A stretch of DNA of 64,000 nt from Mobula hypostoma (Eukaryota), in the NCBI RefSeq assembly GCF_963921235.1, contig NC_086108.1, forward strand, positions 76,324,001 to 76,388,000. Reading direction: 5' to 3'. Below are positions 3,472 to 64,000 of the stretch, piece by piece. Within the stretch, counting starts at the first letter, position 1. The number at the start of each line of letters is the position of its first letter. The notes beneath the pieces were generated by a model. That model did not search any database and was not told the origin of the DNA. It saw only the letters and a program-made list of their open reading frames with translations. Made by a program: the position numbers and the translations under genes.

Positions 3472-3792
3472 TCCTTTCCTATCACGTTCCTTCTTCTTCA
3501 GTTCTTTACCGTTTCCACCCACCATCTTCTAGCTTCTCAGTTCATACTTCTATCTCCACCCACAACCTTCCCCCTCACTGACTTCATCTATCACCTTTTA
3601 GCTTATACTTCCTCTCCTCCCCCACCTTCTTAATCTGGCTCCTTCCTTCTTCCTTTCCAGCCCCATTAAAGGTCTTGAACAGACACATCAACCCTTTATT
3701 CATTTGCATAGATGCTCCCTGACCTACTGAGTTCCTCCTGCATTTTGTGTGCATTACTCTGGATTTCCAGCATCTGCAGAATCCCTTGTGTG
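3472..3792 (+). mobile_element. Degenerate Penelope-like 3' UTR/tail fragment
   Basis: Pyrimidine-rich tract followed by atagatgctccctgacctactgagttcctcc...ttccagcatctgcagaat, matching the tails at 5625-5749 and 62360-62460. Confidence 0.65.
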
Positions 3793-5207
3793 TATCAAGC
3801 AGGTGATGCATCATGACATTTAGAGCAATCGGGGATGAGTAATGAGTACTGGTTTACTCAGCACCATCCACATTCCATAATTGTTTAAAAAAATCTATTT
3901 TTGTACTAGCCAGAGCTGAATGTCTGCAAGAATCTCAAATACATAATGGAATTCTTACTCATGACAAAATTTAGATTATTTGGAAATTTTCCTTTCAGTA
4001 TCTGAGATCTAAAGTATATTATGTAGTAAAATTCTGTCAACAGGCACAAATATCAGATGTCCCCTTCATGTACTAGAATTAGACATGATCCAAGTTTGTA
4101 TGGAATGTTAAAAGCAATCCAAATTTGCGTGAAGTGAATAATTTCCAACAAAAACATTAGAGGTGATGCTCCTTATGATCAAGCAAAATGCCTGATAAGC
4201 ACCGCTGTCAGCTAATTGGAATATTGGAAGTGTTGATATATTTTTGGACAAATCAATCCATTACTCTTTAATATCACAGGGTTACAAAACCAAATTATTA
4301 TTCTTTATTCCTCACCCAGAGAAATGATTTCATTTACAAGTATAATATTTTTCTCATTTCCAGATAGTTCATGGCTTTCGTTATTTTAAAATGAATTAAT
4401 ATATTTGCAGCAAAATAACCATTAAAGAATTGAATTAAGTTTTGTAATGTTTGATTTGAAAGTGTGCAAATTATTTAAAATTTTATGTGTTGCTTTTTCT
4501 CTCCTTTAAATCTCTTTGTGATATGCAACACGCATTGCATCTCTTTTGCAATACACAAAGGCATGGAAAGAAACAGATAAAGTTGTGATGAAGTCTGCTA
4601 AAATCCATCTAATTAAATGAAAATCATGACATTTTTCCAAAGCAAATTAGATAAAATGAGAATTTTTCAGTTCAGACAAGTCTATGCCTCTAATTGCAAT
4701 AAGCAAAAAGAATAGTTCACATTAATGGTATACCACTGGACGCAAGATTTTTGAAATAATTTGGAGGTTTCATGTATTCTGTGCTAAAGGATTAATTGTA
4801 ATCCAGAAAACCTAGAATAAATCCTTATTGCATTTAGAACCTCATTTTCTTTAACACAGACAAATTTTGGCATTCCTAAATCAGATCAAAGAATTGGTTT
4901 GTGACAAAATAATATACAAGAATATCACTTATTCACAAAAATAAGGAAAATAGCAGATAGTAATACAAAAAAACAAAATATGGGTGAAAGAAAGTAAGGA
5001 CTGAGTCAAATTTAAAAAGTGAGAAAAAAAGAAAGAATGTAAAAAACATGAGCAACATGAAATGATGGAGGTCACAATATACTGTCCTCTACATAGGACC
5101 ATTTGCATTGAAAGATTTAAAATATTACAATAAATTAGAAAATGTGATTTTGCAATACAGGCATGAGATTAATTTCAATTCCTTGAAAGTACCACTAGTT
5201 ATATAAA

Positions 5208-5749
5208 CAACACACATCAAAGTTGCTGGTGAACGCAGCAGGCCAGGCAGCATCTCAAGGAAGAGGTACAGTCGACGTTTCAGGTCGAGACCCTTCGTCT
5301 AGTCCTGACATAGAAACATAGAAACATAGAAAATAGGTGCAGGAGTAGGCCATTCGGCCCTTCGAGCCTGCACTGCCATTTATTATGATCATGGCTGATC
5401 ATCCAACTCAGAACCCCGCCCCAGCCTTCCCTCCATACCCCCTGACCCCTGTAGCCACAAGGGCCATATCTAACTCCCTCTTAAACATAGCCAATGAACT
5501 GGCCTCAACAGTTTGCTGTGGCAGAGAATTCCACAGATTCACCACTCTCTGTGTGAAGAAGTTTTTCCTAATCTCGGTCCTAAAAGGCTTCCCCTCTATC
5601 CTCAAACCGTGACCCCTCGTTCTGGAAGGGTCTCGGCCTGAAACGTCGACTGTACCTCTTCCTAGAGATGCTGCCTGGCCTGCTGCGTTCACCAGCAACT
5701 TTGATGTGTGTTGCTTGAATTTCCAGCATCTGCAGAATTCCTGTTGTTT
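5208..5749. mobile_element. Fold-back (inverted) Penelope-like tail pair with nested CR1 fragment
   Basis: 5208-5296 is a near-perfect reverse complement of 5625-5713, and both match the Penelope tail at 62372-62460. Imperfect flanking duplication actagttatataaa (5194-5207) / actagtttataaa (5750-5762). Confidence 0.85.
5310..5624 (-). mobile_element. CR1 LINE 3' end
   Basis: Minus-strand frame TRGHGLRIEGKPFRTEIRKNFFTQRVVNLWNSLP is the CR1 ORF2 C-terminus. Tail appears as (atagaaac)n on the plus strand at 5310-5333. Confidence 0.92.
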
Positions 5750-7744
5750 ACTAGTTTATAAAATCTTTTTTCAGTTTAACCTCTTTTATACATAATGATT
5801 TTTGACATTATAGAGATTTTACAATTCAGATTAGCAATGATTTGCAGGATCATCATCTAATATCCTGACAATGAAGTGAATCTCTTCATTTCATACTCAT
5901 TAGTATGACGACTATTATACTCAGAGTACACATAATCAACTTCTACAACTGACAACAGCAGTTCCAGGAGTTAGGACTGATCCAAAAAGAATTATTAAAA
6001 TTTAAATTATGAGGACCAGGAAATTCTCTCATGTGATGCAGTTATATTATGGACTACATGAAGGAATTTAATCAAATTGTTTTCTGTGTGCATGTCCTAC
6101 GTGTCACTAAAGTGGTATGGGACCCTTCAACGTATGCCATGTTAACGCACCAATGTTTCTAGTGCAGCAACGTCAAAAGGCTTTCAATGTATGTTTTGGA
6201 GTTGAACAACATGGGTCATACAGCAGCAAGCCTTCACAAATCCATTAAAGCCTGCTTGAACACGAATTAAAAGGAACCAGCCGTATTGAGTCTGCCTCTT
6301 GGATTTTTCCACAGGTTGGTCTACTTAAGACTTATACTTGCATTATACTAACTTTACATATTTCTCACCCTTTCACTGGAAGTATGATTTGAAATTTTAC
6401 CATCAAATCATATGCTAATGATTCTACACACATGCTCGCCAACAATGCTCCTGATCCAATCATATCCTTCACCCTCATGTTGCTACATAGTCCCAAAGTG
6501 ATAAATACAATGACAAAGCAAGGAGAAGAAAGATCTTGGGCCTCATCCACAATAATACTACAACAACAAACTATGCATTACACATGTATGACCTATGTCA
6601 TGCCTTGTATCTGAGCTCTGTAAGAATTTATAGCCCAAATTGTTTAGCTGAAATTACTTCACTTACTATTACACCTAATTATATTATAGCTTATTACTTA
6701 TTATTATACCTAATTCAATTGCACAATTATGTATTGGGATTTAAAAGTTTGGCTTGGATTTATAGTCATTGTCAAAACAAAAGGATTCCTTGTGACTTCA
6801 AATTTGCTCATAAAGATCCCTGTAATGTCAGACTCAGATGTGGTATTTCTGATGACAAAGATGTACAATGTTATTAATCACATCAGAGAAATTCTCAGAT
6901 ACCAAAAATGGGGGAAAAAAATTAGCTGATACTTTAAACGTTTTACAGAGCTGCAAACAAGATTGGAACACACACAAAGAAAAGCAGAAGCTGTAATATC
7001 ATAACTTAGTTTTATTTTCAGCAATTTCACTGGCAAATTAGGGACCCTGGAGTCTAATAGTGGAGTAAGAGTTTTCTGGAGTCCCACAACATTTACATAG
7101 CTTGAGCAAGATCTGCAAATCCATTTATTGGATGCAAGATTTTACCACTGTGAGTAAGAAAAGAACAAAAGGTCATTTGCATTTTTCAAAATATTTACAG
7201 TATAATATTTATTAATTATTTAATGTGTTTTAAAAGCATTTGAGATTTAATTTTAATATATCTTTTATTTTTAAACGTGTTTATTTCATTTATAATTTTT
7301 AAGTATTTTTGAATGATGGCGTTGACAAAGCTCTGCCATCTATGTTTTCCTGATGACCTTCATGGATAAGAGTTATACAGTTGCATCACACAAAGCCAAC
7401 ATACTCTGCAGTCTCATTACTTTGCTCCAGGACGGCCTTGGCCAGTTCAGATACATTTGCTGATGGACCAAAGACACTGCGATATTACTTCTGCAAAGTA
7501 CGTAGGAAATGTGGCCCACTCACAATAAACTAGGCCTTTAAAACTTCCATGAGAATTTTGATCCTATTCACAAATGAGAATCTAACTACGTTTTCACAAA
7601 TGCGTCAAAAATGTATTTATCAGCAGTGTGATATAACTAACGCCTAATATGAGAAAGATTCCTTGAAACCCAAAGCCAGTAGCTGATATGGCAGCCATAT
7701 CATCACATGCAGTGAAAATGTTTTTCTTTAAGATTAAATTCTTT

Positions 7745-15724: not shown

Positions 15725-15858
15725 TATCCTGATGAAGAGTCTCAGCACAAAACGCCAACTCTTTATTCCTTTCCCTAGATGCTGCCTGACTTACTGAGTT
15801 CCTCTATCATTTTATGTGTTGCTCCGGGTTTCCAGCATCTACAGAATCTCTTGTGTTT
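15725..15858 (+). mobile_element. Penelope-like tail with degenerate hammerhead motif
   Basis: tcctgatgaagagtctcagcacaaaacgccaact...tagatgctgcctgacttactgagttcctc...ttccagcatctacagaat. Confidence 0.7.
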
Positions 15859-16246
15859 ATGATTTGGTGTGATGGGTTGTGCTTATGACCAATAGCTTTG
15901 ATACTTTCAGAAGTAAATTGGATTTGTACCAAAGAAAAATACTTGAGAGAAGAGCTGTTGAGCTGAGGTGAGAAAGGTGCAATGACAGAAGAAACACACA
16001 CTTTATCTATACTGTATATGCTATATACTGTACAGTCATCTACATCTTGAAAATGCCTATTTTACATTTTAGGGTAGCTATGTGATATGAAGCACTCCTC
16101 AGCCTGATCTGACACAGCAAAATGGAGACAGGTATGTAATAGAAGTCTCTAGAGTTTCCAAACAGAGAATTAGGCCTGAGAGGGAGTTTTATAAAAGCAT
16201 GATGACTAAAGACAACTGCGCTGCTCCAAAGACTGCTATATGAGGT

Positions 16247-20278: not shown

Positions 20279-21056
20279 AAAAAGTAAGGAGAACAAAAAT
20301 ACACTCAAATTAATGCTGTTTTACTAGGTGAGTATGTATTGATTTACCTTAGCTCTTTAATTTTCTTATATTGTACAGATTAGTTCAATTCTACATCTAA
20401 GAAAATGCTATACTTCTGGACTTCAGTTCCATTCTGGATTTAATTTCAAATGAATATAAAGTTACATGAACTCTTTAAGCAAATGTCATTCCTACTACCT
20501 CCAGGAAAACCATAACTAATTGACAAAGTGCACAGGTTGAAACGTCTTGATATTAGATTTTTCCAATTTAGTGACCTGGGACAACTCATATGGGAGAAAA
20601 GAAGTAAGAACTTAAAAATGAAATTATTTGAATAAGATTCAAAATTATGATAAAAAAAGTCACATGGGTGGTGTGGGAAATACAAGAGAGAGAGAGTGAG
20701 ACAGCATGCACATGCATTCAAATGCAAGTTGGGATCTGAATTTGGAAATGAGGCACATTGTCAGGGAATAGTTTAAATACCATCCGGCATTCTGTAGCCT
20801 CACTTGGAAACACAATTTAACTGGGAACTCAGAAGTAGAAAAAAAAGTCTTATATTAACGCCTATCACATTGATAGTTATTTTTAAAATTAACACGTCAT
20901 TTGAAACAAAAAATGTAAGTTGTCCCTTGTGGACTCAAAGATATTTAATAATAGCTAGCCTTTCAAAAATGTATATGAATTTAAGCTTGTAAATCTCTTT
21001 TGACCCAGCAGAAGGAAACCACAGATATTCCTCCTGGGTCACACCAATTCTCAAAG

Positions 21057-32313: not shown

Positions 32314-32444
32314 CGAAAATTTAGGATACAGGTCCCATACAACCTTTGTATAACAAAATCCTGTGCACCATTTGCCTTCTTAAATTGCTTGCTTTAGTAA
32401 ACTAACATTAGCTTGTTTCTCAACTATTTAAAATGTAAAACATA

Positions 32445-32549
32445 AACACAAGAGATTCTGCAGATGCTGAAAATCCAGAGCAACAAACACAAAATGCTGG
32501 AGGAATTCAGCAGGTAAGGCAGCATCCATGGAGAGGTTTCATCAGGACA
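32445..32549 (-). mobile_element. Penelope-like tail fragment
   Basis: agattctgcagatgctg...aaaatgctggaggaattcagcagg...gcagcatc...ttcatcaggac is the reverse complement of the tail with an internal deletion. Confidence 0.7.
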
Positions 32550-37615: not shown

Positions 37616-38351
37616 TGAGATGCAACGGGACTTAGGAGCCCTCGTACAGGATTCCCTTAAAGTTAACCTCCAGGTTGAGTCAGTAGTGAAGAAGGCAAAT
37701 GCAATGTTGGCATTCATTTCTAGAGGAATAGAGTATAGGAGCAGGGATGTGATGTTGAGGCTCTATAAGGCGCTGGTGAGACCTCACTTGGAGTACTGTG
37801 GGCAGATTTGGTCTCCTTATTTAAGAAAGGATGTGCTGACGTTGGAGAGGGTACAGAGAAGATTCACGAGAATGATTCCGGGAATGAGAGGGTTAACATA
37901 TGAGGAACGTTTGTCCGCTCTTGGACTGTATTCCTTGGAGATTAGAAGAATGAGGGGAGACCTCATAGAAACATTTCGAATGTTAAAAGGCATGGACAGA
38001 GTGGATGTGGCAAAGTTGTTTCCCATGATGGGGGAGTCTAGTACGAGAGGGCATGACTTCAGGATTGAAGGGCGCCCTTTCAGAACAGAAATGCGAAGAA
38101 ATTTTTTATTCAGAGAGTGGTGAATCTATGGAATTTGTTGCCACGGGCAGCAGTGGAGGCCAAGTCATTGGGCGTATTTAAGGCAGAGATTGATAGGTAT
38201 CTGAGTAGCCAGGGCATCAAAGGTTATGGTGAAAAGGCGGGGCAGTGGGACTAAATAGGATAAAATGGATCAGCTCATGATAAAATGGCGGAGCAGACTC
38301 GATGGGCCGAATGGCCTACTTCTGCTCCTTTGTCTTATGGTCTTATGGTCT
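37616..38351 (+). mobile_element. Young CR1 LINE, 5'-truncated
   Basis: MQRDLG...LYKALVRPHLEYC..WSPY...RRMRGDLIETF; tail tcttatggtcttatggtc. Near-identical to the reverse complement of about 44901-45635. Confidence 0.95.
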
Positions 38352-44900: not shown

Positions 44901-46312
44901 ACCATAAGACCATAAGACAAAGGAGCAGAAGTAGGCCATTCGGCCCATCGAGTCTGCTCCACCATTTTATCATGAGCTGATCCATTTTATCCTATTTAGT
45001 CCCACTGCCCCGCCTTCTCACCATAACCTTTGATGCCCTGGCTACTCAGATACCTATCAATCTCTGCCTTAAATACACCCAATGACTCGGCCTCCACTGC
45101 TGCCCGTGGCAACAAATTCCATAGATTCACCACTCTCTGACTAAAAAAATGTTTTCGCATTTCTGTTCTGAAAGGGCGCCCTTCAATCCTGAAGTCACGC
45201 CCTCTCGTACTAGACTCCCCCGTCATGGGAAACAACTTTGCCACATCCACTCTGTCCACCCCTTTTAACATTCGAAATGTTTCTATGAGGTCTCCCCTCA
45301 TTCTTCTAAACTCCAAGGAATACAGTCCAAGAGCGGACAAACGTTCCTCATATGTTAACCCTCTCATTCCCGGAATCATTCTCGTGAATCTTCTCTGTAC
45401 CCTCTCCAACGTCAGCACATCCTTTCTTAAATAAGGAGACCAAAACTGCCCACAGTACTCCAAGTGAGGTCTCACCAGCGCCTTATAGAGCCTCAACATC
45501 ACATCCCTGCTCCTATACTCTATTCCTCTAGAAATGAATGCCAACATTGCATTCGCCTTCTTCACTACCGACTCAACCTGGAGGTTAACTTTAAGGGAAT
45601 CCTGTATGAGGACTCCCAAGTCCCGTTGCATCTCAGAACTTTGAATTCTTTCTCCATTTAAATAATAGTCTGCCCATTTATTTTTTCTGCCAAAGTGCAT
45701 AACCATACACTTTCCAACATTGTACTTCATTTGCCACTTCTCTGCCCATTCTTCCAATCTATCCAAGTCTCTCTGCAGACTCTCCGTTTCCTCAGCACTA
45801 CCGGCCCCTCCACCTATCTTCGTATCGTCAGCAAACTTAGCCACAAAGCCATCTATTCCATAATCCAAATCGTTGATGTATAATGTAAAAAGAAGCGGCC
45901 CCAACACTGATCCCTGTGGAACACCACTGGTAACCGGCAGCCAACCAGAATAGGATCCCTTTATTCCCACTCTCTGTTTCCTGCCAATCAGCCAATGCTC
46001 TATCCACGTATGTAACTTTCCTGTAATTCCATGGGCTCTTATCTTGTTAAGCAGCCTCATGTGTGGCACCTTGTCAAAGGCCTTCTGAAAATCCAAATAT
46101 ACAACATCCACTGCATCTCCCTTGTCTAGCCTACTGGTAATTTCCTCAAAAAATTGTAATAGGTTTGTCAGGCAGGATTTTCCTTTAAGGAATCCATGCT
46201 GAGTTCTGCCTATCTTGTCATATGCCTCCAGGTACTCTGTAACCTCATCCTTGACAATCGACTCCAACAACTTCCCAACCACCGACATCAAGCTAACAAG
46301 TCTATAATTTCC
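44901..46312 (-). mobile_element. Young CR1 LINE (uninterrupted RT-to-end frame) nested in the Gypsy integrase C-terminus
   Basis: GNYRLVSLMSVVGKLLE...QHGF...YLDFQKAFDKV...SGVPQGSVLGPLLF...KFADDTK...GYGEKAGQWD with no stops; (tcttatgg)n tail; ataat duplicated at 44896-44900 and 46314-46318. Confidence 0.96.
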
Positions 46313-49300
46313 TATAATTTCAGGGGAGTCTGGGCAAGGTGTTGTTGTGTTTTTCACCTGAGAATCCAGGATTTGGTCCACATGACGTCTCCATACGTCC
46401 TCTCCCACCTTCAATGTATACATCAGTAGCCCGTCTATGGCGGAAGTTGTACCCAGCTGCCACTTTTCAGTCCGGTAATCAGGTGCAAGAAATGACTGTC
46501 CCATACTGAAGCTCCGTGTCGACTTAACGTTCAAGTGTTTGAACTGTCTGTTTTCCACATCCCACTGTACACCTGGCTTGAGAAGATCCATGTGGGACCT
46601 CAGGTTCCTGTTCAGAAACATCATCGCTGGAGTCTGATTAGTGGTTGCATGTACTCATTACATCAGGTAAGGAGGAAGTTGTCTATTTTGTGTTGCAGTG
46701 GTCGATTTTCACTGTCCATTGCCTTGATGGCTTTCTTGAATGTCTGTACAAATCTTTCTACCAAGTCATTTGTGGATGGATGGTAAGGGACAGATGTAAA
46801 GTGCTTGATTCCATTGTTCTTCACAAAACTTTGGAATTCTTCAGAGACAAATTGTCATCCATTGTCTGTGCAGATTTGTTCTGGTACGCCATTCCTGGCG
46901 AACATGGTCCTCAGAACTGTAATGGTCTTTTCCGAAGTGCCTGTCTTCATTTTGATGATCTCTGGCCATTTGGAATGTGCATCGACGGCGATTAAAAAGA
47001 TAGGGTCCATGAATGGCCCAGCAAAGTCGATGTGCACACATTGCCATGGTGATGAGGGCCACTCTCATGGATGGAGAGGGGGTTGTGTTGGTGTGTTGTG
47101 GATCTTTTGACATCCAGAGCAGTTCTTGGTTAAGTCCTCAATCTGTTTATCGATTCCCGGACACCACACATAGGCGCGGGCAAGACTTCTCATCTCCACT
47201 GTACCCTGGTGCCCCTCCTGCAGTTCCTCCAGCACTCTGGTGCGTAGCTTGGGAGGAATCACAACTCGTGAACCACACATTAGTGCTCCCCAACACACTG
47301 ACAACTGCTCCTTCCTCGCTGAGAAGGTTGGGAACAGTGTGTTACCATGTGCTGGCCATCCCTTTACTGTGATGTCAAACACTTTTTACAACATAGGATC
47401 ATTGCGTGCTTCTCTTTCAATGAGGCTGTTTGTCACTGGTAATTGTTCAACTATTGTTGTGTGAAAAACCTTTGCTGAATCCATTTGTGTAGTTATCTCT
47501 GAAGTCAACAGTGGTAAACATGACAAACCATCTGCGTTGCCATGTTGCTTGGTCCCCTTGTGTTCAATGTCATACCTGTGACCTCCTAAGAAAAGAGACC
47601 ATTGCTGCAGCCTTTGTGCTGTCATCACTGGAACGCCTTTCCTTGGGTTGAAGATTGACACGAGAGGCTGATGGTCAGTCAACAGGGTAAACTTTTGACT
47701 ATACAGGTAGTGACTGAATTTCTTGACTCCCCACACGAGCCTCTCTGTCAATCTGTGCATGGTTGCGTTCAGCTGAAGTTAGTGTTCTTGACGCAAAGGC
47801 TATTGGTTTTTCTGAGCCATCTGGAAACTCGTGCGATAACACTGCTCCTATCCCATGGGGCGAGGCACCACAAGCCAGTCGGATTGGTAAGGAGAGGTCA
47901 AAGTGCGCGAGCACCCTTTCCGAAATTATGAGTTTTTTAGTTTCTTGAAACGCTTTTTCACAGCTCTCAGTCCACTTCCATTGTGTCCCTGTCTGTAATA
48001 GTGCATTTAATGGGTGTAGGACTGTGGATAGGTTAGGCAAGAACTTGTGGTAATAGTTCACTAGTCCAAGATATGCTCTCAGCTGAGACACATTTTCAGG
48101 TGATGGTGCCTTAAGCACTGCTTCTATCTTGTCTTGAGACATGTATAAGGCATCCTTGTTGATCACATGCCCACAGTATGGGATTTCCTTTTTGAAAAAA
48201 CTCACATTTCTGTCGATTAGCTCAGAGCCCATATTCTCGTAACCTGGTGAGCACTTGTTCAAGGTTAGAAAGATGTTCGTCGTCATCTTTGCCGATGACA
48301 ATGATGTCATCCAGGTAACACTGAGTCCCTGGAATCCCCTGCAGGACCTGGTCCATTGCCCTTTGCCAGATTGCAGGAGCTGATGCTATCCCAAACACCA
48401 ACCTGTTGTACTGGTAAAGTCCTTTGTGTGTATTTATCGTCAGGTATTTCTTGGATGCCTCATCGATTTTCCATTTGGAGATAAGCCTGGGCCAAATCGA
48501 TTTTTGTGAAATGTTCCCTTCCTGACAGGGAAGCAAAGATGTTCTCAATACGAGGTAGAGGATATTGTACTGTGTGGAGAACTGGGTTGACAGTCTCTTT
48601 AAAGTCTCCACATATGCGCACCCTGCTTGGTTTACCTGGTTTTGTGCTGGAGGTTTTCTTCATCACTAGAACAATAGACGTGGCCCATTCACTCCAATCC
48701 ACCTTTGACAGGACCCCAGTCTGCTCCAGATTTTTCAGCTCTGCCTCTGCTGTAGGACAGATTGCATATGGCACTGGTCTGGCTTTGTGAAATTTTGGAC
48801 ATGCATTTTCCTCAACCTCAGTCTTTGCCTTCATACCCTGAAGTGTTCCTATTCCTTTCATGAACACTTCCTCAGAGTCAGTAAGTATTTGTGACAGTCT
48901 CTCAGATGTAGCCTTGCTGCCCTCCTTTGCTGACACATCTAGTGCTTTGATGGTGTGTCAATCCAGCTGGATTTTCCTGAGCCATTCACATCCCAGCAAC
49001 GGTGGTCCTCCATTTTTCAGTGCATAGAGGTTCAGCTGCTGTGTTTTGTCTCCGTAGGTCACTGTCACTTTAATTTTACCTTTGGGACGCAGTCTCTGTC
49101 TTGTGTAAGTCTTTAGCAGTTGTTTAGTTCGTTTCAGAGGTATGTAAGAAAACAGTCGTTTGTAGTCGTGTACAGAGATCACTGTTAAAGCTAACCCTGT
49201 GTCCAACTCCATTTTCAGTTTCACGCCTGCCACTTCTGGAGTGATCCATATTACTCTTCGATCATCTGTCTCTTCCACGCTGGGAAGTTGCAGACAAGAC

Positions 49301-49714
49301 AAATCACTTTTGTCAGCTGGCTTTTCAGGGGTTAACAAGATCCGTAGCAACCCGTATATTTTTGCTCCCATAACACTGAGTAAGACATTGGCTTTCTTTT
49401 CATCATTAACACAATATAACTCCACTCTTTCAATGTGTGTTACCCAGTTTTCAATGCTATTATCAAATGCTGTAATGGTTCCAATTATCGCCATCTTTGT
49501 TATGTTAATTTAGCCCCGTTTTTCTGTTTTCTTTTCAGCTAGCTCCTTGTAGTCACAGCACGTTTCACTTGACTCATGTGTCCTTTTTGCTAGCACAACG
49601 AGCGCACTCCGTCTAGTTGCGTGTCGCTCGTTTTCATCTCCCTTCTCTCTCTTCTCCTCCAAGTGTCATTATTAACTAAAACACGGCATTCCGATAAGAT
49701 GTAGGTTCATAATT

Positions 49715-55784: not shown

Positions 55785-56644
55785 TTACTGTTTAGCAATT
55801 ATCGCTTAACATTTACTATTGTGTATTTACCTAAAAAGAAGAGCATATAATTTTAATTGAATACTCAAATAGCAGAAAACAATTGCATTTGCCACATTTC
55901 ATAATTTCAGTTTGGAGCATGTATTTTTGTTGATAGGGCAATCTGCCATTACAATGTATTTTAAAACTAGGATAAAAGGTACTGGATTGAGGTCAAACAT
56001 GCACCAAAACTCTGCAGCCTTCAAACTTGTTTCGGTCAACTTCAGACATCAATGCAAATCAGCAGAAACTACTTGATGCAGGTCAGATTTCAAGCAATGG
56101 ATGGTATTGCAGTGATGAATAATCTTTGTGTAATAAATACTATTCTGAAATGCTGAGCCAAGGTTCCACCTAAACTTTCACATTTACTGGAATATCAATT
56201 GTAAACTATTTGCCATATCTCTAAAACTTTGTTTTGCATAGTGAATAGAGGAGCAAAAAGGTAAGAAACATAAAAGAATGACTGCAAGAGGATAAAAACT
56301 AGAGAGACTGGAGGGGATGACTAATAATTCAAGTTTACAGCACACCAGTATACTTATACTCTGTGTTTAGATAATTAGCAACATATGAGCCTAATAAAAT
56401 CCTGGGTTTATCTATTGTGATTTTGATTGGAAAAGCAAATCAAGACAAGCAAGTACTAAATTTTTCAGTAGAGTACATCACAAATCAGACTATAAAGCTT
56501 AAACTAACTAAGCCATGGCACAAATCTTTCCATTACTTAGTATTAAATTGGCAATCTCACAGTGAGACACTGTAAGAGCAGGTAGTATTCTACTCAGAAC
56601 CAATCACTAATCTATGCACTTGGAAAACTATTAACTTGGAAGGA

Positions 56645-56750
56645 CTATTTGGGGCCCTGAATGGAGGTGAGGGAAGGGGTGTATGGACAGGTGTAGCACT
56701 TAGGTCACTTGCAGGGATGTGCCTGGAGGAAGATTAGCGGGGAGGGATGA
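56645..56750 (-). mobile_element. Penelope-like internal fragment
   Basis: Reverse complement aligns with about 61625-61730 (Cys-rich linker CKQNKCYTCPY...IQGPKQ). Confidence 0.8.
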
Positions 56751-56789: not shown

Positions 56790-57934
56790 TGTGCTGAGTT
56801 CACTGGTGTACACTCTCCTCACACATGACTGCAAGGCCAATTACCCAAGTAATCACATTGTCAAGTTAGTCAATGACACAACAATAGTGGGGCTCATCAC
56901 GAACAACGATGAGATGACCTACTGGGAGGAGGTGGAAGAGCTTGAGGCCTGGTGTAAGGCAAATAACCTCTTCCTCAACAAGAATAACCCGATGGTTATT
57001 GACTTCAGAAGAGCTCGCACCACTCCCACCCCTCTTAACATCAACAGCCCAGCAGTGGAAACTGCGAGAGGCTTCAAACTCCCAGGAGTGAACATTTCGC
57101 ATAACTTCCCATGGTCCCAAAACACATTCTACACGATCTGGAAAGCTCACCAATGCCTCTACTTTCTGAAGAGGCTTAAGAAATCTGGACTATGTGCCAC
57201 TATATGCATGTCATTCTACAAGTGTGCAGCAGAGAGCACACCAACAAGCTGCATCACTGTGTGGTACAGAATCTGCACTGCAGTGGACAGGAAGGCTCTA
57301 CAACAGGTAGTCAAAACTGCCCAACAGATCACAAGCACCAGCCTACCTGCCATCAAGGACATATATAGAGAAAGGTGTCAGAAAAGGGCCAGTAACATCA
57401 TTGAGGATCCCATCCACCTCTGCTCATGGACTGTTTGTCCCACTCCCATCAGGGAAGAAGCTAGGTAGCATCCACAACAGAACCACCAGACTCAAAAACA
57501 GTTACTTTCCCCAAGCAGTAAGGCTGATCAACACCTCCACCTACTAACCCACCCCTTCATACCCCCAACCACCACGACTTTATCATTTCTTGTCAGTCAC
57601 CATATGTACAGACACTTCTGTGCCTAGTGTCACTTTATGGACAAACAATCAATCTATGTACACAAACTATATTACGTATTTATATTACAAACAAGAGATG
57701 CTGGAAATCCGAGCAACACACACAAAATGTTGGAGGATCTCACCAGACTAGGCAGCATCTATGGAAAAAAGTACAATCGACATTTCGGGCTAGCATTTTG
57801 TGTTACATATTTATATTTGTTGTGTTCTTTATCTTATTGTTTTTTTGTGCTGCATCTGATCAGATTAACAATTATATTGTTCTCCTTTACACTCGTATAT
57901 TGGAAATGACACTAAACAATCTTGAATCTTGAAT
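56790..57934 (+). mobile_element. Rex1/Babar-type LINE 3' half, with an antisense Penelope tail nested at about 57688-57791
   Basis: LSSLVYTLLTHDC...IVKLVNDTTIVGLITNNDE...KAHQCLYFLKRLKK...CITVWY; tail (cttgaat)n. Same family as 13515-15703. Confidence 0.9.
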
Positions 57935-60569
57935 CAAGCAGCACTTACTAATAACTGCTCCCTGGTGCTCAGTTTGGGCTTCCCAAGGACCATTGAACTC
58001 CAGACTTTCTTTCACATGTTTCAGTGAACAAATTGATGATGACTTGGGGTTTATTCTCTGTACAAGCACATATAGACATGTTGTCTGCATTCTGCAGCCC
58101 AATGATTAAATTTGGGATGACATTGGATCTGGAGTGAAAGTGATACAGATTGAACAGCTTCCGCTCTGTTAAATAGAGTAGCTCCATCCCAGCAGGAAGC
58201 ATGCTGGAGGCAAGGTGCAGTGGGAAAGATTGAGAAAAACACTGAGGTAATGATGCAGCTTTACTGAACACTATTCTTCACTGAGGCTGGGTCTGTTTTG
58301 GACCCATATCATTATAAAGTAATGTAAGATGAAAATTAATTTCTGTGGACAAACTCATCTCACAAGCTTTGAGACATCACAATCATCATCACCTTCAAGA
58401 AAAGAGACAAATGCAACGACAATAATTGCACAGTGGTACTCTGCTATGTGCCACAGGGAAATTTGTCACATGGGGGCAGGGGGTCTCCTCAAATGGCTCT
58501 TCAGAGTGGAAGAAGCCATTTGTCAATGATGATGTGGACTCTGCCCACCTGGAGACACAATAGACATGGTCTTCACTATCTGTCCATGCCAAAATGAATG
58601 GCAAGGAGCAATATTAATAGTTAAACATGGCTGTTTTGCTTATCTACCTGAAAGGTGAAAAAATATACAAGACACTTATTAAAGGGATGTAAGGAAATAA
58701 ATTTTAACCCCAAGTTTTCTACTTCAACTCTTTCAAAGTTATAAATTAGCACAACAGAAGAAATCTGAAAGTTTCATCATTAAGAAACAACAATTGCATT
58801 TTCACAGTGATTTTGTCAGGTTAATACATTTACTGATTTATCCTCAAGTTACTTCTGGTTATTGGATACTAAAGTATTGAGACTTAACAATATTAACAAA
58901 GCAAAAGCAGCCCTTGATTAAGAAGAAGAACTGACTTAATTGTCATGTATGTATGGATTTTTAAAGCAAAAATGCAGCAAATCCACGAGATTCCTAGAGG
59001 AAGCAGCTACGGTAACTAGAAAATTTGTGTTGTTCCATTTCTCTACATTGAAAACATTTCAAAAAACAAAGGCATTTAAAGTCATCATCATAATGCAGAA
59101 ATAGAGTCTCAACCCTGATACAGGCAAATCAAAATTCTGGTCCAATAAATTTTGTCAGTAACGAAACAATGACGAAATACACATATAGTTTTGAAGTTTA
59201 AATTTGAACCTTGGTTCAAATTTGAGGTTTTACTTCATCATGTATTCATTAAAGAAATTCTGAACATTGGATATCTATTGTATCCCTTTAGGAGGATATT
59301 ACAGAAGATTTCTTCCAACTACATAAAATATCCACAATGAAAATATTCTGTTAAAATATCACAATATACAGAAAAACTTTGTAGAGTAGGAGCTTAAACA
59401 ATGAGGTAACTATATTGCTGCACATCAATATTGTAACCAAATCCATTCTTCAGAAATAGCTAACTAATTAAAAGCTGGTGGGTTCTAAATAATTAATCTC
59501 CTTAACTTGTATTGATTTGACACTTTTGTGGTGGGGGATTACTGCTACTAAATTAAACAGCTTCCTATAGTCACTGTACTGGAGGCAAATCTGAGACGAT
59601 TCAGTGAAACAAAATATACTTCAAAACTAAAAATATTGGCACTTTGAACATTTGATTAATTTTATGGTTTTGAAATTCAGAGCTTAAGGTGCCCTTGGAG
59701 AGAAGAAAAGGAAACAGCATGAGAGTAGCAATAAGTCTAGAAAAAAACATAGAATGAGTCATGGAAACTTGGACAGATGTATATTGAAGATTGAGATAGC
59801 TTTCTTACAACATATTTATTCTGTTCAATATCCATCATCTTTTCCTATTCCTTTCAAATCCTTGTAAAAATGGATCCAATATCTATATAGTATGTTCTCA
59901 AACAAGATAGCAGGATACAAGAAAGTGAACCAATTGTTTCTCTAGCACTTTAAGTGTGACAATAATCTGTCTTCTTCAAACTGCAACATATTTTCTTCCT
60001 AAGTACTTTTTATCTGCCATGTGGGCATGGCAGGAATTTGGACGTTGGCTTAAATGGTTTGAAAATCATGGTTAGCGCATCTAAAATTAAGACATCCATA
60101 TCACTTTTCCTGCTAAAGTAGGCACACTTGAAATTTAATGATTTGAATTGTGTTTTAGAAGCAATGAAAATCAAGAATTATCCAATGAACACTTCTGCTT
60201 TTAATATGCAATGAAGGACAGACATATGTCTACATAAACAAAGCTCAGATGAAGCTATAATTTCAAAAAGTGCCGTATTCAGGTGGATATCTGATATGGT
60301 TTAATGAAACTTATAACTAAAATCAAATAGATATATTAAATCAAATATTAAATATTTCAGCAGTTCAATAACATCTTTATAAATATCCCTCCAAATTTGA
60401 AGGATCAATATATTTCTAAAGCCAACATACTTGAATTAAATATGTCCAAAAAGTAAAAAGTAAACAATTAAAGGTCAATTGAACAGAAAAAAAACAATAT
60501 GCACAATTCCTGAAGAGAAAGGGCTTACTTAGTGAATACAAAGCAATAACAAAAGAATACAAATGTGCA

Positions 60570-62066
60570 GTGTACACTGTACTCTATCACTGTACTTTAT
60601 CACCCCTTGTTCAATCCCTTCCGACCTATGTTCGTGACACTTCTCACGGTCTTAAACTTTTCGATGATTTTAAGTTCCCTGGCCCCCACCGCTTTATTTT
60701 CACCATGGATGTCCAGTCCTTATATACTTCCATCCCCCATCAGGAAGGTCTCAAAGCTCTACGCTTCTTTTTGGATTCCAGACCTAATCAGTTCCCCTCT
60801 ACCACCACTCTGCTCCGTCTAGCGGAATTAGTCCTTACTCTTAATAATTTCTCCTTTTGCTCCTCCCATTTCCTCCAAACTAAAGGTGTAGCTATGGGCA
60901 CCCGTATGGGTCCTAGCTATGCCTGCCTTTTTGTTGGGTTTGTGGAACAATCTATGTTCCGTGCCTATTCTGGTATCTGTCCCCCACTTTTCCTTCGCTA
61001 TATCGACGACTGCATTGGCGCTGCTTCCTGCACGCATGCAGAACTCGTTAACTTTATTAACTTTGCCTCCAACTTTCACCCTGCCCTCAAGTTTACCTGG
61101 TCTATTTCCGACACCTCCCTCCCCTTTCTAGATCTTTCTGTCTCTGTCTCTGGAGACAGCTTATCCACTGATATCTACTATAAGCCTACTGACTCTCACA
61201 GCTATCTGGACTATTCCTCTTCTCACCCTGTCTCTTGCAAAAACGCCATCTCCTTCTCGCAATTCCTCCGTCTCCGCCGCATCTGCTCTCAGGATGAGGC
61301 TTTTCATTCTAGGACGAGGGAGATGTCTTCATTTTTTAAAGAAAGGGGCTTCCCTTCCTCCACTATCAACTCTGCTCTTAAACGCATCTCCTCCATTTCA
61401 CGTACATCTGCTCTCACTCCATCCTCCCACCACCCCACTAGGAATAGGGTTCCCCTGGTCCTCACCTACCACCCCACCAGCCTCCGGGTCCAACATATTA
61501 TTCTCCGTAACTTCCGCCACCTCCAACGGGATCCCACCACTAAGCACATCTTTCCCTCCCCCCCTCTCTCTGCATTCCGCAGGGATCGCTCCCTACACAA
61601 CTCCCTTGTCCATTCGTCCCCCCCATCCCTCCCCACTGATCTCCCTCCTGTCACTTATCCGTGTAAGCAGAACAAGTGCTACACATGCCCTTACACTTCC
61701 TCCCTTACCACCATTCAGGGCCCCAAACAGTCCTTCCAGGTGAGGCATCACTTCACCTGTGAGTCGACTGGGGTGATATACTGCGTCCGGTGCTCCCGAT
61801 GTGGCCTTTTATATATTGGTGAGACCCGACGCAGACTGGGAGACCGCTTTGCTGAACATCTACGCTCTGTCCGCCAGAGAAAGCAGGATCTCCCAGTGGC
61901 GACACATTTTAATTCCACGTCCCATTCCCATTCTGACATGTCTATCCACGGCCTCCTCTACTGTAAAGATGAAGCCACACTCAGGTTGGAGGAACAACAC
62001 CTTATATTCCGTCTGGGTAGCCTCCAACCTGATGGCATGAACATTGACTTCTCTAACTTCCGCTAG
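60570..62066 (+). CDS. Penelope-like RT + GIY-YIG endonuclease (N-terminally truncated; first ~10 codons are flank)
   Basis: TMDVQSLYTSIP, GVAMGTRMGPSYACLF, LRYIDDC, PFLDL, Cys-rich linker, then VIYCVRCSRCGLLYIGETRRRLGDRFAEH. No stop in 498 codons. Confidence 0.9.
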   Translation: MYTVLYHCTLSPLVQSLPTYVRDTSHGLKLFDDFKFPGPHRFIFTMDVQSLYTSIPHQEGLKALRFFLDSRPNQFPSTTTLLRLAELVLTLNNFSFCSSHFLQTKGVAMGTRMGPSYACLFVGFVEQSMFRAYSGICPPLFLRYIDDCIGAASCTHAELVNFINFASNFHPALKFTWSISDTSLPFLDLSVSVSGDSLSTDIYYKPTDSHSYLDYSSSHPVSCKNAISFSQFLRLRRICSQDEAFHSRTREMSSFFKERGFPSSTINSALKRISSISRTSALTPSSHHPTRNRVPLVLTYHPTSLRVQHIILRNFRHLQRDPTTKHIFPSPPLSAFRRDRSLHNSLVHSSPPSLPTDLPPVTYPCKQNKCYTCPYTSSLTTIQGPKQSFQVRHHFTCESTGVIYCVRCSRCGLLYIGETRRRLGDRFAEHLRSVRQRKQDLPVATHFNSTSHSHSDMSIHGLLYCKDEATLRLEEQHLIFRLGSLQPDGMNIDFSNFR

Positions 62067-62460
62067 GCCCCACCTCCCCCTCGCACCCCAGCTGTTACTC
62101 CTTTTTATGCACACATTCTTTCTCTCACTCTCCTTTTTCTCCCTCTGTCCCTCTGAATATACCTCTTGCCCATCCTCTGGGTCAACCTCCCCCCCCCGTC
62201 TTTCTCCCTAGGCCTCCTGTCCCATGATCCTCTCATATCCCCTTTTGCCTATCACCTGTCCAGCTCTCGGCTCTATCCCTCCCCCTCCTGTCTTCTCCTA
62301 TCATTTTGCATCTCCCCCTCCCCCTCCAGCTTTCAAATCCCTTACTCACTCTTCCTTCAGTTAGTCCTGACGAAGGGTCTCGGCCTGAAACGTCGACTGC
62401 ACCTCTTCCTATAGATGCTGCTTGGCCTGCTGCGTTCACCAGCAACTTTGATGTATGTTG
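60587..62460 (+). mobile_element. Penelope-like element (Neptune-type), 5'-truncated, with TSD
   Basis: RT+GIY-YIG frame, pyrimidine-rich 3' UTR and hammerhead-bearing tail. actgtactcta is duplicated at 60576-60586 and 62461-62471. Confidence 0.93.
62362..62399 (+). ncRNA. Minimal type I hammerhead ribozyme motif
   Basis: UAGUC-CUGACGA-AGG-GUCUCGG-CCU-GAAA-C-GUC-GACUG: core CUGANGA and GAAA, GUC triplet, stem I UAGUC/GACUG, stem II AGG/CCU. Confidence 0.8.
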
Positions 62461-63454
62461 ACTGTACTCTAGTTGTGTTTTCTCTTTTACGCTCGTATTT
62501 GAAGCAAAGCATCTACATTCTTATGCTCAAAACTTTGGAATTAAAACTATTAAATCATTTTCTGATTGTTTGTTCTCCCTTAATGTTAACGTTCCCTGTG
62601 TTGTGTAAAGACATAGAGATTTTGTTAATGCAAATGGTTATGGTTTTCAGAACTTTAAAAACATCCTTACTTCTTCTTGAATCTTACTAAAGAGCATAAT
62701 TTTATTAATTGCATATTGCATCTGCCACCTTCTGCCCAAACACTTAATTATTCTGCATCCTTATGCACCACCTTCCTTACACCTTGCTCTTATCCTGCTT
62801 TCCATCACCAGCATAGATATATAACATTCCATCACCACATCTATGTTATTAATATAAACTGTAAATACATTCCAAACTCCGATTTCATAGTAATCAGTTG
62901 CACCCCAATACGATGATTGTTTATTCTGTTTCGCTGTCCATTAAGCAATCCTTAATCCATGCTATTAAATTATCCCCAATCTCATGAGTTCTACTCTTTT
63001 TAAGAAACGTGTGATAGTAAATCCCATGAGTCCACATCTCTGAAAATAAAGTGGAGAAAACTGTAGATATTTGTTAAGAGGATTTATATTGCACAACGGA
63101 TGGCTTGGGAGGGTATTGAGTGGACTCAGAAACTCAAAGTGGAAAAGTCTGTGGTGATAGCAAATAAATCAACACTAAAAAGTGAAATTATGGGGTGCAG
63201 TAGAAAAAAAATGTAAGTAGTACATACATAATGTTTGCAATTTAATACAAACTAGTGCAAAATAGTGGATTCAAGTAAGGCAAGTAGAAAACATGGATAT
63301 TGCATGAATCATCATCAAATAAATATCATAAAAACTAAAAAAAACCAAAAGTCACTCAATATTAAATACTGTAATCAATGCAGGACAATAAATATAAAGC
63401 AAAAGGATGTGAAACCACACTGGAAGTGCAATTGAATAAAAGAATAATCTGTTC

Positions 63455-63545
63455 AAAGGTCACCAATCTGAAATATTAACTCTGTTTTTCTCTCTCCACA
63501 GAAGCTATCTGGTCTGCTGAGTATTTACAGCATTTTCTGTTTTAA
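63455..63545 (+). mobile_element. Old Penelope-like tail fragment
   Basis: aaaggtcaccaatctgaaatattaactctgtttttctctctccacagaagct...ctgctgagtatttacagcattttctgttttta; a similar relic lies at about 49970-50055. Confidence 0.55.
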
Positions 63546-64000
63546 TTCGAACATTATATGGTGCCTGGCCAGGCCATAGTTTTAATATGTCTGCAGTTCA
63601 ATTATCCAGATACAAAAGAACTACTGACATGCTAGATACAATGCAGAAAACAGCAATGAAGCTAATTTCAGGTGGCAGTTTGAGTGTTGAGAAACCCCAA
63701 GAAAAATGCAAAAAAAAAGAAATAGTTTTTAACATGGTCTTCTAAAGTCATAAAAGATCAGCAGCAGTATCAATAATAATTTAAAATGTATGAGTATAAC
63801 AACAGAAAGTAGGTTCAAATATTTGAAAAGCAATTTAAGAACTAATGTACAGAAATTATTCTTGATAAAACCTGTGAAGCAGGCTACAGAATAGAGCTAT
63901 ATGGTAATGTATATTATGTTACAGTAGTATAGATTATGTTATAAAACAAGTAATCCAGAATGATCAGGCAGCAATGCAAGCTTAAATTCCACCAGGGTTA

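Follow-up and report, generated by a model that had tools for sequence, protein, structure and literature searches.

The locus described here raises the question of whether a hammerhead ribozyme left in the genome by a retrotransposon still cuts RNA, or whether it has only been carried along with the insertion. The window (the whole 64,000-nt stretch of Mobula hypostoma DNA that has been analyzed) holds at 62362-62399 a motif in which the original prediction saw an intact minimal hammerhead in the tail of a Penelope-like element (PLE). By every sequence feature examined, the motif is a PLE minimal hammerhead (min-HHR), and the focal motif is very probably a passenger copy of this standard ribozyme. 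Positions inside the motif follow the common hammerhead numbering, and its parts are as follows.

62362..62399, + strand: minimal type I hammerhead ribozyme motif (min-HHR), core letters all present
62362..62366, + strand: stem I 5' arm, partner 62395-62399, conserved part the inner 3-4 bp
62367..62374, + strand: core C3-A9 CUGACGA (62367-62373), then unpaired A62374, an extra A typical of PLE min-HHRs (PMC4209133)
62375..62386, + strand: stem II, 62375-62378 with 62383-62386, 4-nt loop 62379-62382, G10.1.U11.1 wobble in this copy
62387..62394, + strand: G12-A15.1 (GAAA), loopless palindromic stem III ACGU (62390-62393), C17 = 62394

The letters and coordinates first proposed all match the forward strand, with TAGTC (62362-62366) and GACTG (62395-62399) as stem I arms, CTGACGA at 62367-62373, GAAA at 62387-62390, GTC at 62392-62394 and the palindrome ACGT at 62390-62393. 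The core CUGANGA...GAAA...UH is complete, with a predicted cut after C62394 (62394/62395), and the proposed identity, a PLE minimal type I hammerhead of a known class that is active only as a dimer, agrees with the published description (PMC4209133). The pattern CTGANGA-N5-30-GAAACGT has been found once in the 64-kb window, none of 100 dinucleotide shuffles contained it, and a loose descriptor has given one further weak match at 20520, probably by chance. The covariance-model check suggested earlier has returned nothing: no Rfam hammerhead family, Hammerhead_1 included, reached the gathering score in the window or E<=10 within 60000-64000. The folding energy of the motif region is also close to that of shuffles (z of 0.15, 0.25 and -1.04 for three spans). 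Therefore, the case stands on comparison and not on stability. The exact DNA pattern gave no match in metagenome contigs and none in viral contigs, where a protein-based scan likewise yielded 0 of 20 candidates.

For this comparison, 361 related loci have been confirmed in metagenome contigs, and 80 were kept. Among the 29 loci that reach the ORF end with at least 400 nt beyond, several are near-duplicates and the loci are therefore not independent cases; 11 of them carry a strict sense-strand min-HHR within 1.2 kb after the ORF, where 0.02 loci are expected from 50 base shuffles, and in 8 of the remaining 18 a form with one mismatch occurs 90-135 nt past the ORF. Relatives with the motif at the same place share only about 45-55% protein identity and have different yet paired stems. 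In an alignment of the focal copy with 13 relatives (14 rows, of which 13 were chosen by a paired-stem descriptor and one by hand, several being close kin, which inflates the pairing figures), two-sided compensatory changes occur in 7 of 9 pairs, in 33 cells against 12.7 after shuffling. The covariation amounts to 0.725 compared with 0.246 for shuffled rows; it was reached by none of 500 shuffles, and slid registers gave at most 0.10. The compensatory changes support both helices I and II of the type I topology, and the stem covariation named earlier as a check is thus found among related elements, in descriptor-selected rows. The catalytic set C3, U4, G5, A6, G8, A9, G12, A13 and A14 is what stays invariant in the 14 motifs, although the search pattern itself demanded these letters. 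Because distant relatives keep the core after the ORF together with compensatory stem changes, the hammerhead fold must be under selection in active elements.

The same alignment has changed the reading of the stems. The AGG/CCU register proposed for stem II turned out to be a misreading, as stem II consists of G62375-U62378 and G62383-U62386 behind the unpaired A62374. Pair probabilities of 0.87-0.97 are predicted for G62375-U62386, G62376-C62385, G62377-C62384 and U62378-G62383, versus 0.02 for AGG/CCU, whose first pair, A62374-U62386, is possible in 1 of the 14 motifs; this register has been rejected. The G10.1-N11.1 register with unpaired A, which corresponds to the published architecture (PMC4209133), has a pair probability of 0.96 and pairs in 13 of 14 motifs, under a descriptor that admitted both registers; the pair at position 11.1 is G-C in 12 of 14 and G.U in the focal copy. 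In the ray family, C occupies 62386 in 19.9%, 28.7% and 20.6% of the depth of three sequencing runs, which turns the G.U into G-C, and A62374 shows no change among the 40 of 72 variants listed. The letters of stem I stand as given; its outermost pair T62362-G62399 does not, being paired in 4 of 14 motifs, and the conserved stem has 3-4 bp. The stem III centre is CG in 13 of 14.

The hammerhead lies 300 nt past an ORF stop, on the sense strand of an element spanning 60594-62460, which is a 5'-truncated Neptune-type PLE built as follows.

60576..60586, no strand assigned: left copy of the 11-bp target-site duplication
60594..62066, + strand: 5'-truncated PLE ORF, about 490 of ~800 aa, open to the stop
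60999-61010, + strand: reverse transcriptase (RT) motif YIDD, intact
61662-61688, + strand: CX4CxxC linker, intact
61770-61826, + strand: GIY-YIG, motif intact
62067..62361, + strand: pyrimidine-rich 3' UTR / part of the pLTR
62395..62460, + strand: element sequence past the predicted cut, 66 nt, optional ~36-nt tail absent
62461..62471, no strand assigned: right copy of the 11-bp target-site duplication, identical to the left

The PLE homology lies in an open frame at 60483-62066, in which Pfam has recognized RVT_1 (E 3e-05) and GIY-YIG (E 4e-04), both below the curated cut-offs. Among 691 protein homologues, the long ones measure about 800 aa and the best belong to rays and sharks, with 94% over 76% of the query for Mobula and 78-88% for Hypanus. 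The homology sets in at 60594-60597, beside the left duplication, which corresponds to about residue 317 in a homologue of 803 aa; therefore, the copy is 5'-truncated. It lacks the full-length ORF and the upstream pLTR in partial tandem by which autonomous PLEs are defined, and it cannot mobilise; promoter and N-terminus are missing. The CX2-5CxxC linker is described for Neptune and Nematis and as absent from Poseidon (PMC8557442), and Neptune and Poseidon are the only PLEs reported from vertebrates in a recent preprint (bioRxiv 10.64898/2026.07.22.740005). The Neptune-type assignment is our call from the linker and this vertebrate clade distribution rather than from a tree against reference PLEs. 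At the 5' junction, the target sequence is repeated imperfectly (60587-60599), which suggests microhomology or slippage at the truncation point. In public ray genomes, pieces of the PLE ORF have been annotated as isoforms of host genes (P0001 and P0004, under the names divergent protein kinase domain 1C and chitinase domain-containing protein 1), which are probably annotation artefacts.

Motifs of this kind have been described in the pLTRs of PLEs, where they need dimers to act and occur in masses, mostly as solo copies from truncated elements; the monomer has been found inactive and the dimers weak, and fish Xena, Poseidon and Neptune PLEs are among the reported carriers (Cervera and De la Pena, 2014, PMC4209133). 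The focal motif resembles these metazoan min-HHRs in its type I topology, short helix I, extra nucleotide at 9/10.1, G10.1, palindromic 15.2-16.2, missing loop III and location in the pLTR, whereas its helix II measures 4 bp compared with 7-8 bp in the Schistosoma family, and G10.1.U11.1 replaces a G-C pair (PMC4209133). The element that carries it shares with Neptune EN+ PLEs the order of RT and C-terminal GIY-YIG, the CX2-5CxxC linker, CCHH-type cysteines in the GIY-YIG domain, 5' truncation and a pLTR hammerhead, as well as the occurrence of an inverted truncated copy and of a one-ended tail; unlike those, the focal insertion lies outside a microsatellite and has a clean 11-bp duplication (Craig et al., 2021, PMC8557442). 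Naiad PLEs thrive without a hammerhead, and the possibility of parasitism has been raised (PMC8557442).

Functional work has been done on PAc, the Poseidon element of Anolis carolinensis, whose hammerhead is protein-assisted and dispensable for insertion, uncut RNA being the main substrate (Frangieh et al., 2024, PMC11167929). There, rescue by a C3/G8 swap shows true catalysis, catalytic mutants leave in vitro insertion unaffected, and no RNA-seq ends have been reported at the cut site (PMC11167929). As in PAc, insertions of the ray family end past an uncut hammerhead, and two end sites flank an optional tail, of 30-40 nt in PAc and lying between 62460 and about 36 nt further on here; PAc is a Poseidon-clade element with an ORF that begins within stem II, whereas the ray element has a Neptune-type linker and no ATG at that place (PMC11167929). 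The 5' organisation of the focal element falls outside the window. Non-LTR retrozymes likewise have a type I hammerhead derived from PLE pLTRs, and they have been found in the single chondrichthyan sampled; the shortest retrozyme consensus of that study measures 51 bp. They are, however, non-coding tandem repeats, in contrast to the single motif on a coding PLE body found here (bioRxiv 10.64898/2026.07.22.740005). By the non-coding tandem hammerhead units that define it, the focal element does not belong to that group. Of nine frog retrozyme dimers, one has been seen to cut (same preprint). Among the openly accessible papers searched, none was devoted to ray PLE hammerheads.

The fate of inserted copies can be followed in three sequencing runs, which have been compared over 62200-62620 only: two DNA runs (X1 from organism A, X5 from organism B) and one run from another individual that is RNA by the guess of the program (X9). 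On these 421 nt, family matches have been obtained in 86,888 contigs of X1 and 6,135 of X9. The depth summed over X1 contigs, which is not a copy number, is highest over the hammerhead at 12.5 million; upstream it lies at 4-7 million, immediately downstream it is about 9 million, and in the unique flank it falls to 15. Contigs of X1 have loose ends before 62363-62364 (625 and 204) and behind 62398-62399 (199 and 515), so that the motif appears as an island common to subfamilies with different flanks and to short solo tails. A further 415 end behind 62460, a major 3' end of family copies, some of which run into the optional tail, a pattern that is the signature of PLE tails; no peak at the cut site 62394/62395 is present among the loose ends listed. 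We have also observed the joint 62397->62363 (two contigs of X1, one of X9) and the joints 62399->62363 and 62400->62364, which suggests rare 35-38-nt tandem duplications of the hammerhead at other loci, candidates for natural cis-dimers.

Changes inside the motif consist of CpG transitions and the substitution at 62386, among the 40 of 72 variants listed. The essential G8 is replaced by A in 7.5% of depth in X1 and 6.5% in X5, within the span of 4.7-12.6% of the other CpG G>A changes listed for these runs. The CpG changes amount to 8.7/11.4% (X1) and 10.0/11.0% (X5) in loop II and to 8.1/9.2% (X1) and 11.0/12.6% (X5) in stem III, and C17 is changed in 7.6% (X1) and 10.5% (X5). In inserted copies, the loss of G8 accordingly proceeds at roughly the rate of neutral CpGs, if a little below that of the loop II CpG (7.5 vs 11.4% in X1, 6.5 vs 11.0% in X5), and thus the core is kept by selection on active lineages and not on inserted copies. 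CpG-decayed variants are 2-5-fold rarer in X9; the deficit is equal for the CpGs of loop and tail and hence a sign of younger copies rather than of selection on the core.

The insertion itself appears young. In X1, a contig joins the tail to the right flank with zero differences. A 3,711-nt contig of X5 matches 62461-62620 only (3 differences) and continues with 2,673 letters unlike the tail; if it represents an empty site, its predicted end lies at 57903, and a neighbouring repeat ends near 57937, in agreement with a break about 30 letters inside that repeat. From this contig geometry, organism B appears to hold the empty site, and such a site in a related organism supports a recent insertion. 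Both parts of the phrase "young Penelope-like element" in the original prediction are therefore borne out by the target-site duplication, the homology and the apparent empty site; the element is, however, 5'-truncated.

Whether this copy cuts depends on a partner and on its fold. A model built from the alignment has found in the window the focal motif, which it contains by construction, and two broken motifs at 5274-5299 and 5617-5652; no intact second hammerhead partner is present in the 64 kb. In the isolated 38-mer, G5-G8 are predicted to pair with C15.2-C17 in a core-blocking helix with a probability of 0.98-0.99. By nearest-neighbour energies, which exclude Mg2+, tertiary contacts and protein, an active-type dimer is predicted at -11.5 kcal/mol, two blocked monomers at -22.0 and an inactive duplex at -30.3 kcal/mol. 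Nine of the 14 motifs could form the core-blocking helix in full; as the consensus letters already dictate this helix, it is no evidence of design. In the native context, stems I and II are predicted with a probability of 0.0, and an upstream arm is expected to take part.

62348..62360, + strand: upstream arm rich in pyrimidines, predicted partner 62367-62378, would sequester the 5' core, a feature of the focal copy that relatives do not generally share

As a general feature, such an upstream anti-core hairpin has been rejected, since relatives fold variously. The 66 nt kept past the cut site indicate that the template was uncut there (or re-ligated). A 240-nt contig of X9, a probable RNA run, covers the unique right flank (62485-62620) at a depth of 4.9, so the locus may be transcribed. 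Among 532 unmasked frames of at least 40 aa, 40 have splice-like signals; no host gene has been recognized in the 30 frames scanned in Pfam (28 of these 40 and 2 others), whose sole match is a retrotransposon protease at 48961-49509 on the minus strand. This weak match to a gag-polyprotein aspartyl protease marks a remnant of an LTR retrotransposon. The earlier idea of a host intronic transcript accordingly finds no support in these 30 frames, nor does the proposal that this copy processes RNA, in view of the missing cis partner, the uncut template, the inactive folds and the decay of G8. On its own, lacking promoter, N-terminus and cis partner and with inactive folds predicted, the focal copy is most likely silent.

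From these observations, a history may be drawn for the passenger copy. In active tandem elements of Neptune type, as known from the literature and expected for this family, the pLTR would place a hammerhead at both transcript ends; two copies would come together by base pairing of their stem I arms and of their ACGU palindromes and be cut after C17, probably aided by the protein of the element. Selection on active elements preserves core and stems, as the comparison shows. At the focal locus, endonuclease and RT would have primed 66 nt past the cut site on an RNA presumably uncut at the motif; the RT would then have copied through the motif and stopped inside its own gene, a course that fits the structure with its 11-bp target duplication. 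The resulting solo copy would most likely be silent and decay by CpG mutation, as its many siblings do. As such it adds a further copy to a motif known across animal PLEs since 2014 and matters little. The ray family, however, is a convenient system for testing cis and trans cutting, being young and abundant, with defined ends, an apparent empty site and rare tandems.

Other readings differ widely in probability. A chance resemblance could appeal to the silence of Rfam, the shuffle-like folding energy and the weak match of the loose descriptor at 20520, yet 0 of 100 shuffles hold the pattern, and its position in relatives about 45-55% identical, with different paired stems, is not expected by chance; positional enrichment and covariation refute it and leave it a negligible likelihood. 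A reading that we consider possible, if rather doubtful, is that the shape is kept for a non-cutting role, such as RNA dimerisation or a binding site for the PLE protein upstream of the point of priming, or that the ribozyme merely rides along. Insertions that keep the uncut site, the normal in vitro insertion of catalytic mutants (PMC11167929) and the success of Naiad PLEs without a hammerhead (PMC8557442) would agree with it, whereas the invariant letters of the 14 motifs are precisely the catalytic ones, though demanded by the pattern, and rescue by the C3/G8 swap proves true catalysis for the lizard hammerhead (PMC11167929). This reading concerns the class and is compatible with a passenger role of the focal copy.

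It is unlikely, by comparison, that the solo copy acts in trans, with abundant family transcripts supplying a partner, perhaps chaperoned by PLE protein, and the copy cutting its own transcript. Its intact core, the abundance of the family (86,888 and 6,135 contigs), the rarity of CpG-decayed variants and the unique right flank in X9, and the protein-assisted cleavage of the lizard PLE (PMC11167929) may be counted in its favour; they are opposed by the unfavourable dimer energy relative to blocked monomers and inactive duplex, by a decay deficit in X9 that is equal at loop and tail CpGs and reflects younger copies, by the frames scanned, in which no host gene is seen, and by the low dimer activity reported so far (PMC4209133; one of nine frog retrozyme dimers, bioRxiv 10.64898/2026.07.22.740005). 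If solo copies did cut host transcripts in trans, shark and ray transcriptomes would be subject to a large and so far unrecognised influence. Still more speculative, and very improbable, is a transcriptome-wide cutting system of dispersed half-ribozymes, in which solo copies are locked and cut in trans with partner RNA and PLE protein, ADAR editing tunes the pairing, and the 35-nt tandems are constitutively active cis-dimers, shorter than the 51-bp retrozyme minimum. The passenger copy described above remains the preferred reading.

A likely editing signal has been observed next to the motif. In X9, A>G changes reach 2% at 12 places, compared with 3 and 5 places in the DNA runs, and at six sites in 62262-62344, including the AAA at 62335-62337, they amount to 6-9% versus at most 0.3% in X1. 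T>C is not raised in X9. ADARs have known preferences for neighbouring nucleotides. Within 62262-62348, 37 of 85 antisense A's are preceded by a 5' G, a context which may explain part of the strand asymmetry. A-to-I editing by ADAR of sense copies in the 3' UTR (62262-62348) is thus likely, in a comparison with DNA of other animals rather than matched DNA of the same one, and editing of Penelope has been reported in a lizard (PMC5625713).

The window contains a second insertion of the same subfamily.

5208..5750, no strand assigned: second insertion, with an inverted and a direct tail

Its inverted tail (5208-5299) has a core without C3U4 and without the stem I arm. The direct tail (5300-5309 and 5625-5750) starts exactly at stem I, and its core is split as CUGAC|GA by a LINE fragment at 5310-5624, which we take to be CR1-like. 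The part at 5625-5750 carries the optional ~36-nt tail, so that the insertion has this tail at one end only. Before the LINE landed, the insertion would have yielded a ~92-bp hairpin, and an imperfect duplication beginning ACTAGTT flanks it. As a cis partner for the focal motif it has been rejected, as both cores are broken and it lies 57 kb away.

Older, decayed tails of related PLEs are scattered at 15727-15865 (+), 57696-57790 (-), 32437-32537 (-), 3689-3795 (+), 63466-63562 (+) and 56634-56749 (-), with cores broken or missing; one of the six is a fragment of the linker region. Among the related elements outside the window, four (L005, L079, L080 and L073) show a second hammerhead on the opposite strand, corresponding to the inverted pLTR copies known in PLEs, and another (L069, at position 1014 on the minus strand) has a different hammerhead with a TATA stem III palindrome; this hammerhead has G as its extra nucleotide and lies upstream of the PLE match in antisense orientation. 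Finally, the window holds an inverted LINE-like pair at 37616-38349 and 44901-45635. Its members lie 6.5-7 kb apart with 97-98% complementarity along about 740 nt, and the pair would be a likely source of double-stranded RNA if transcribed.
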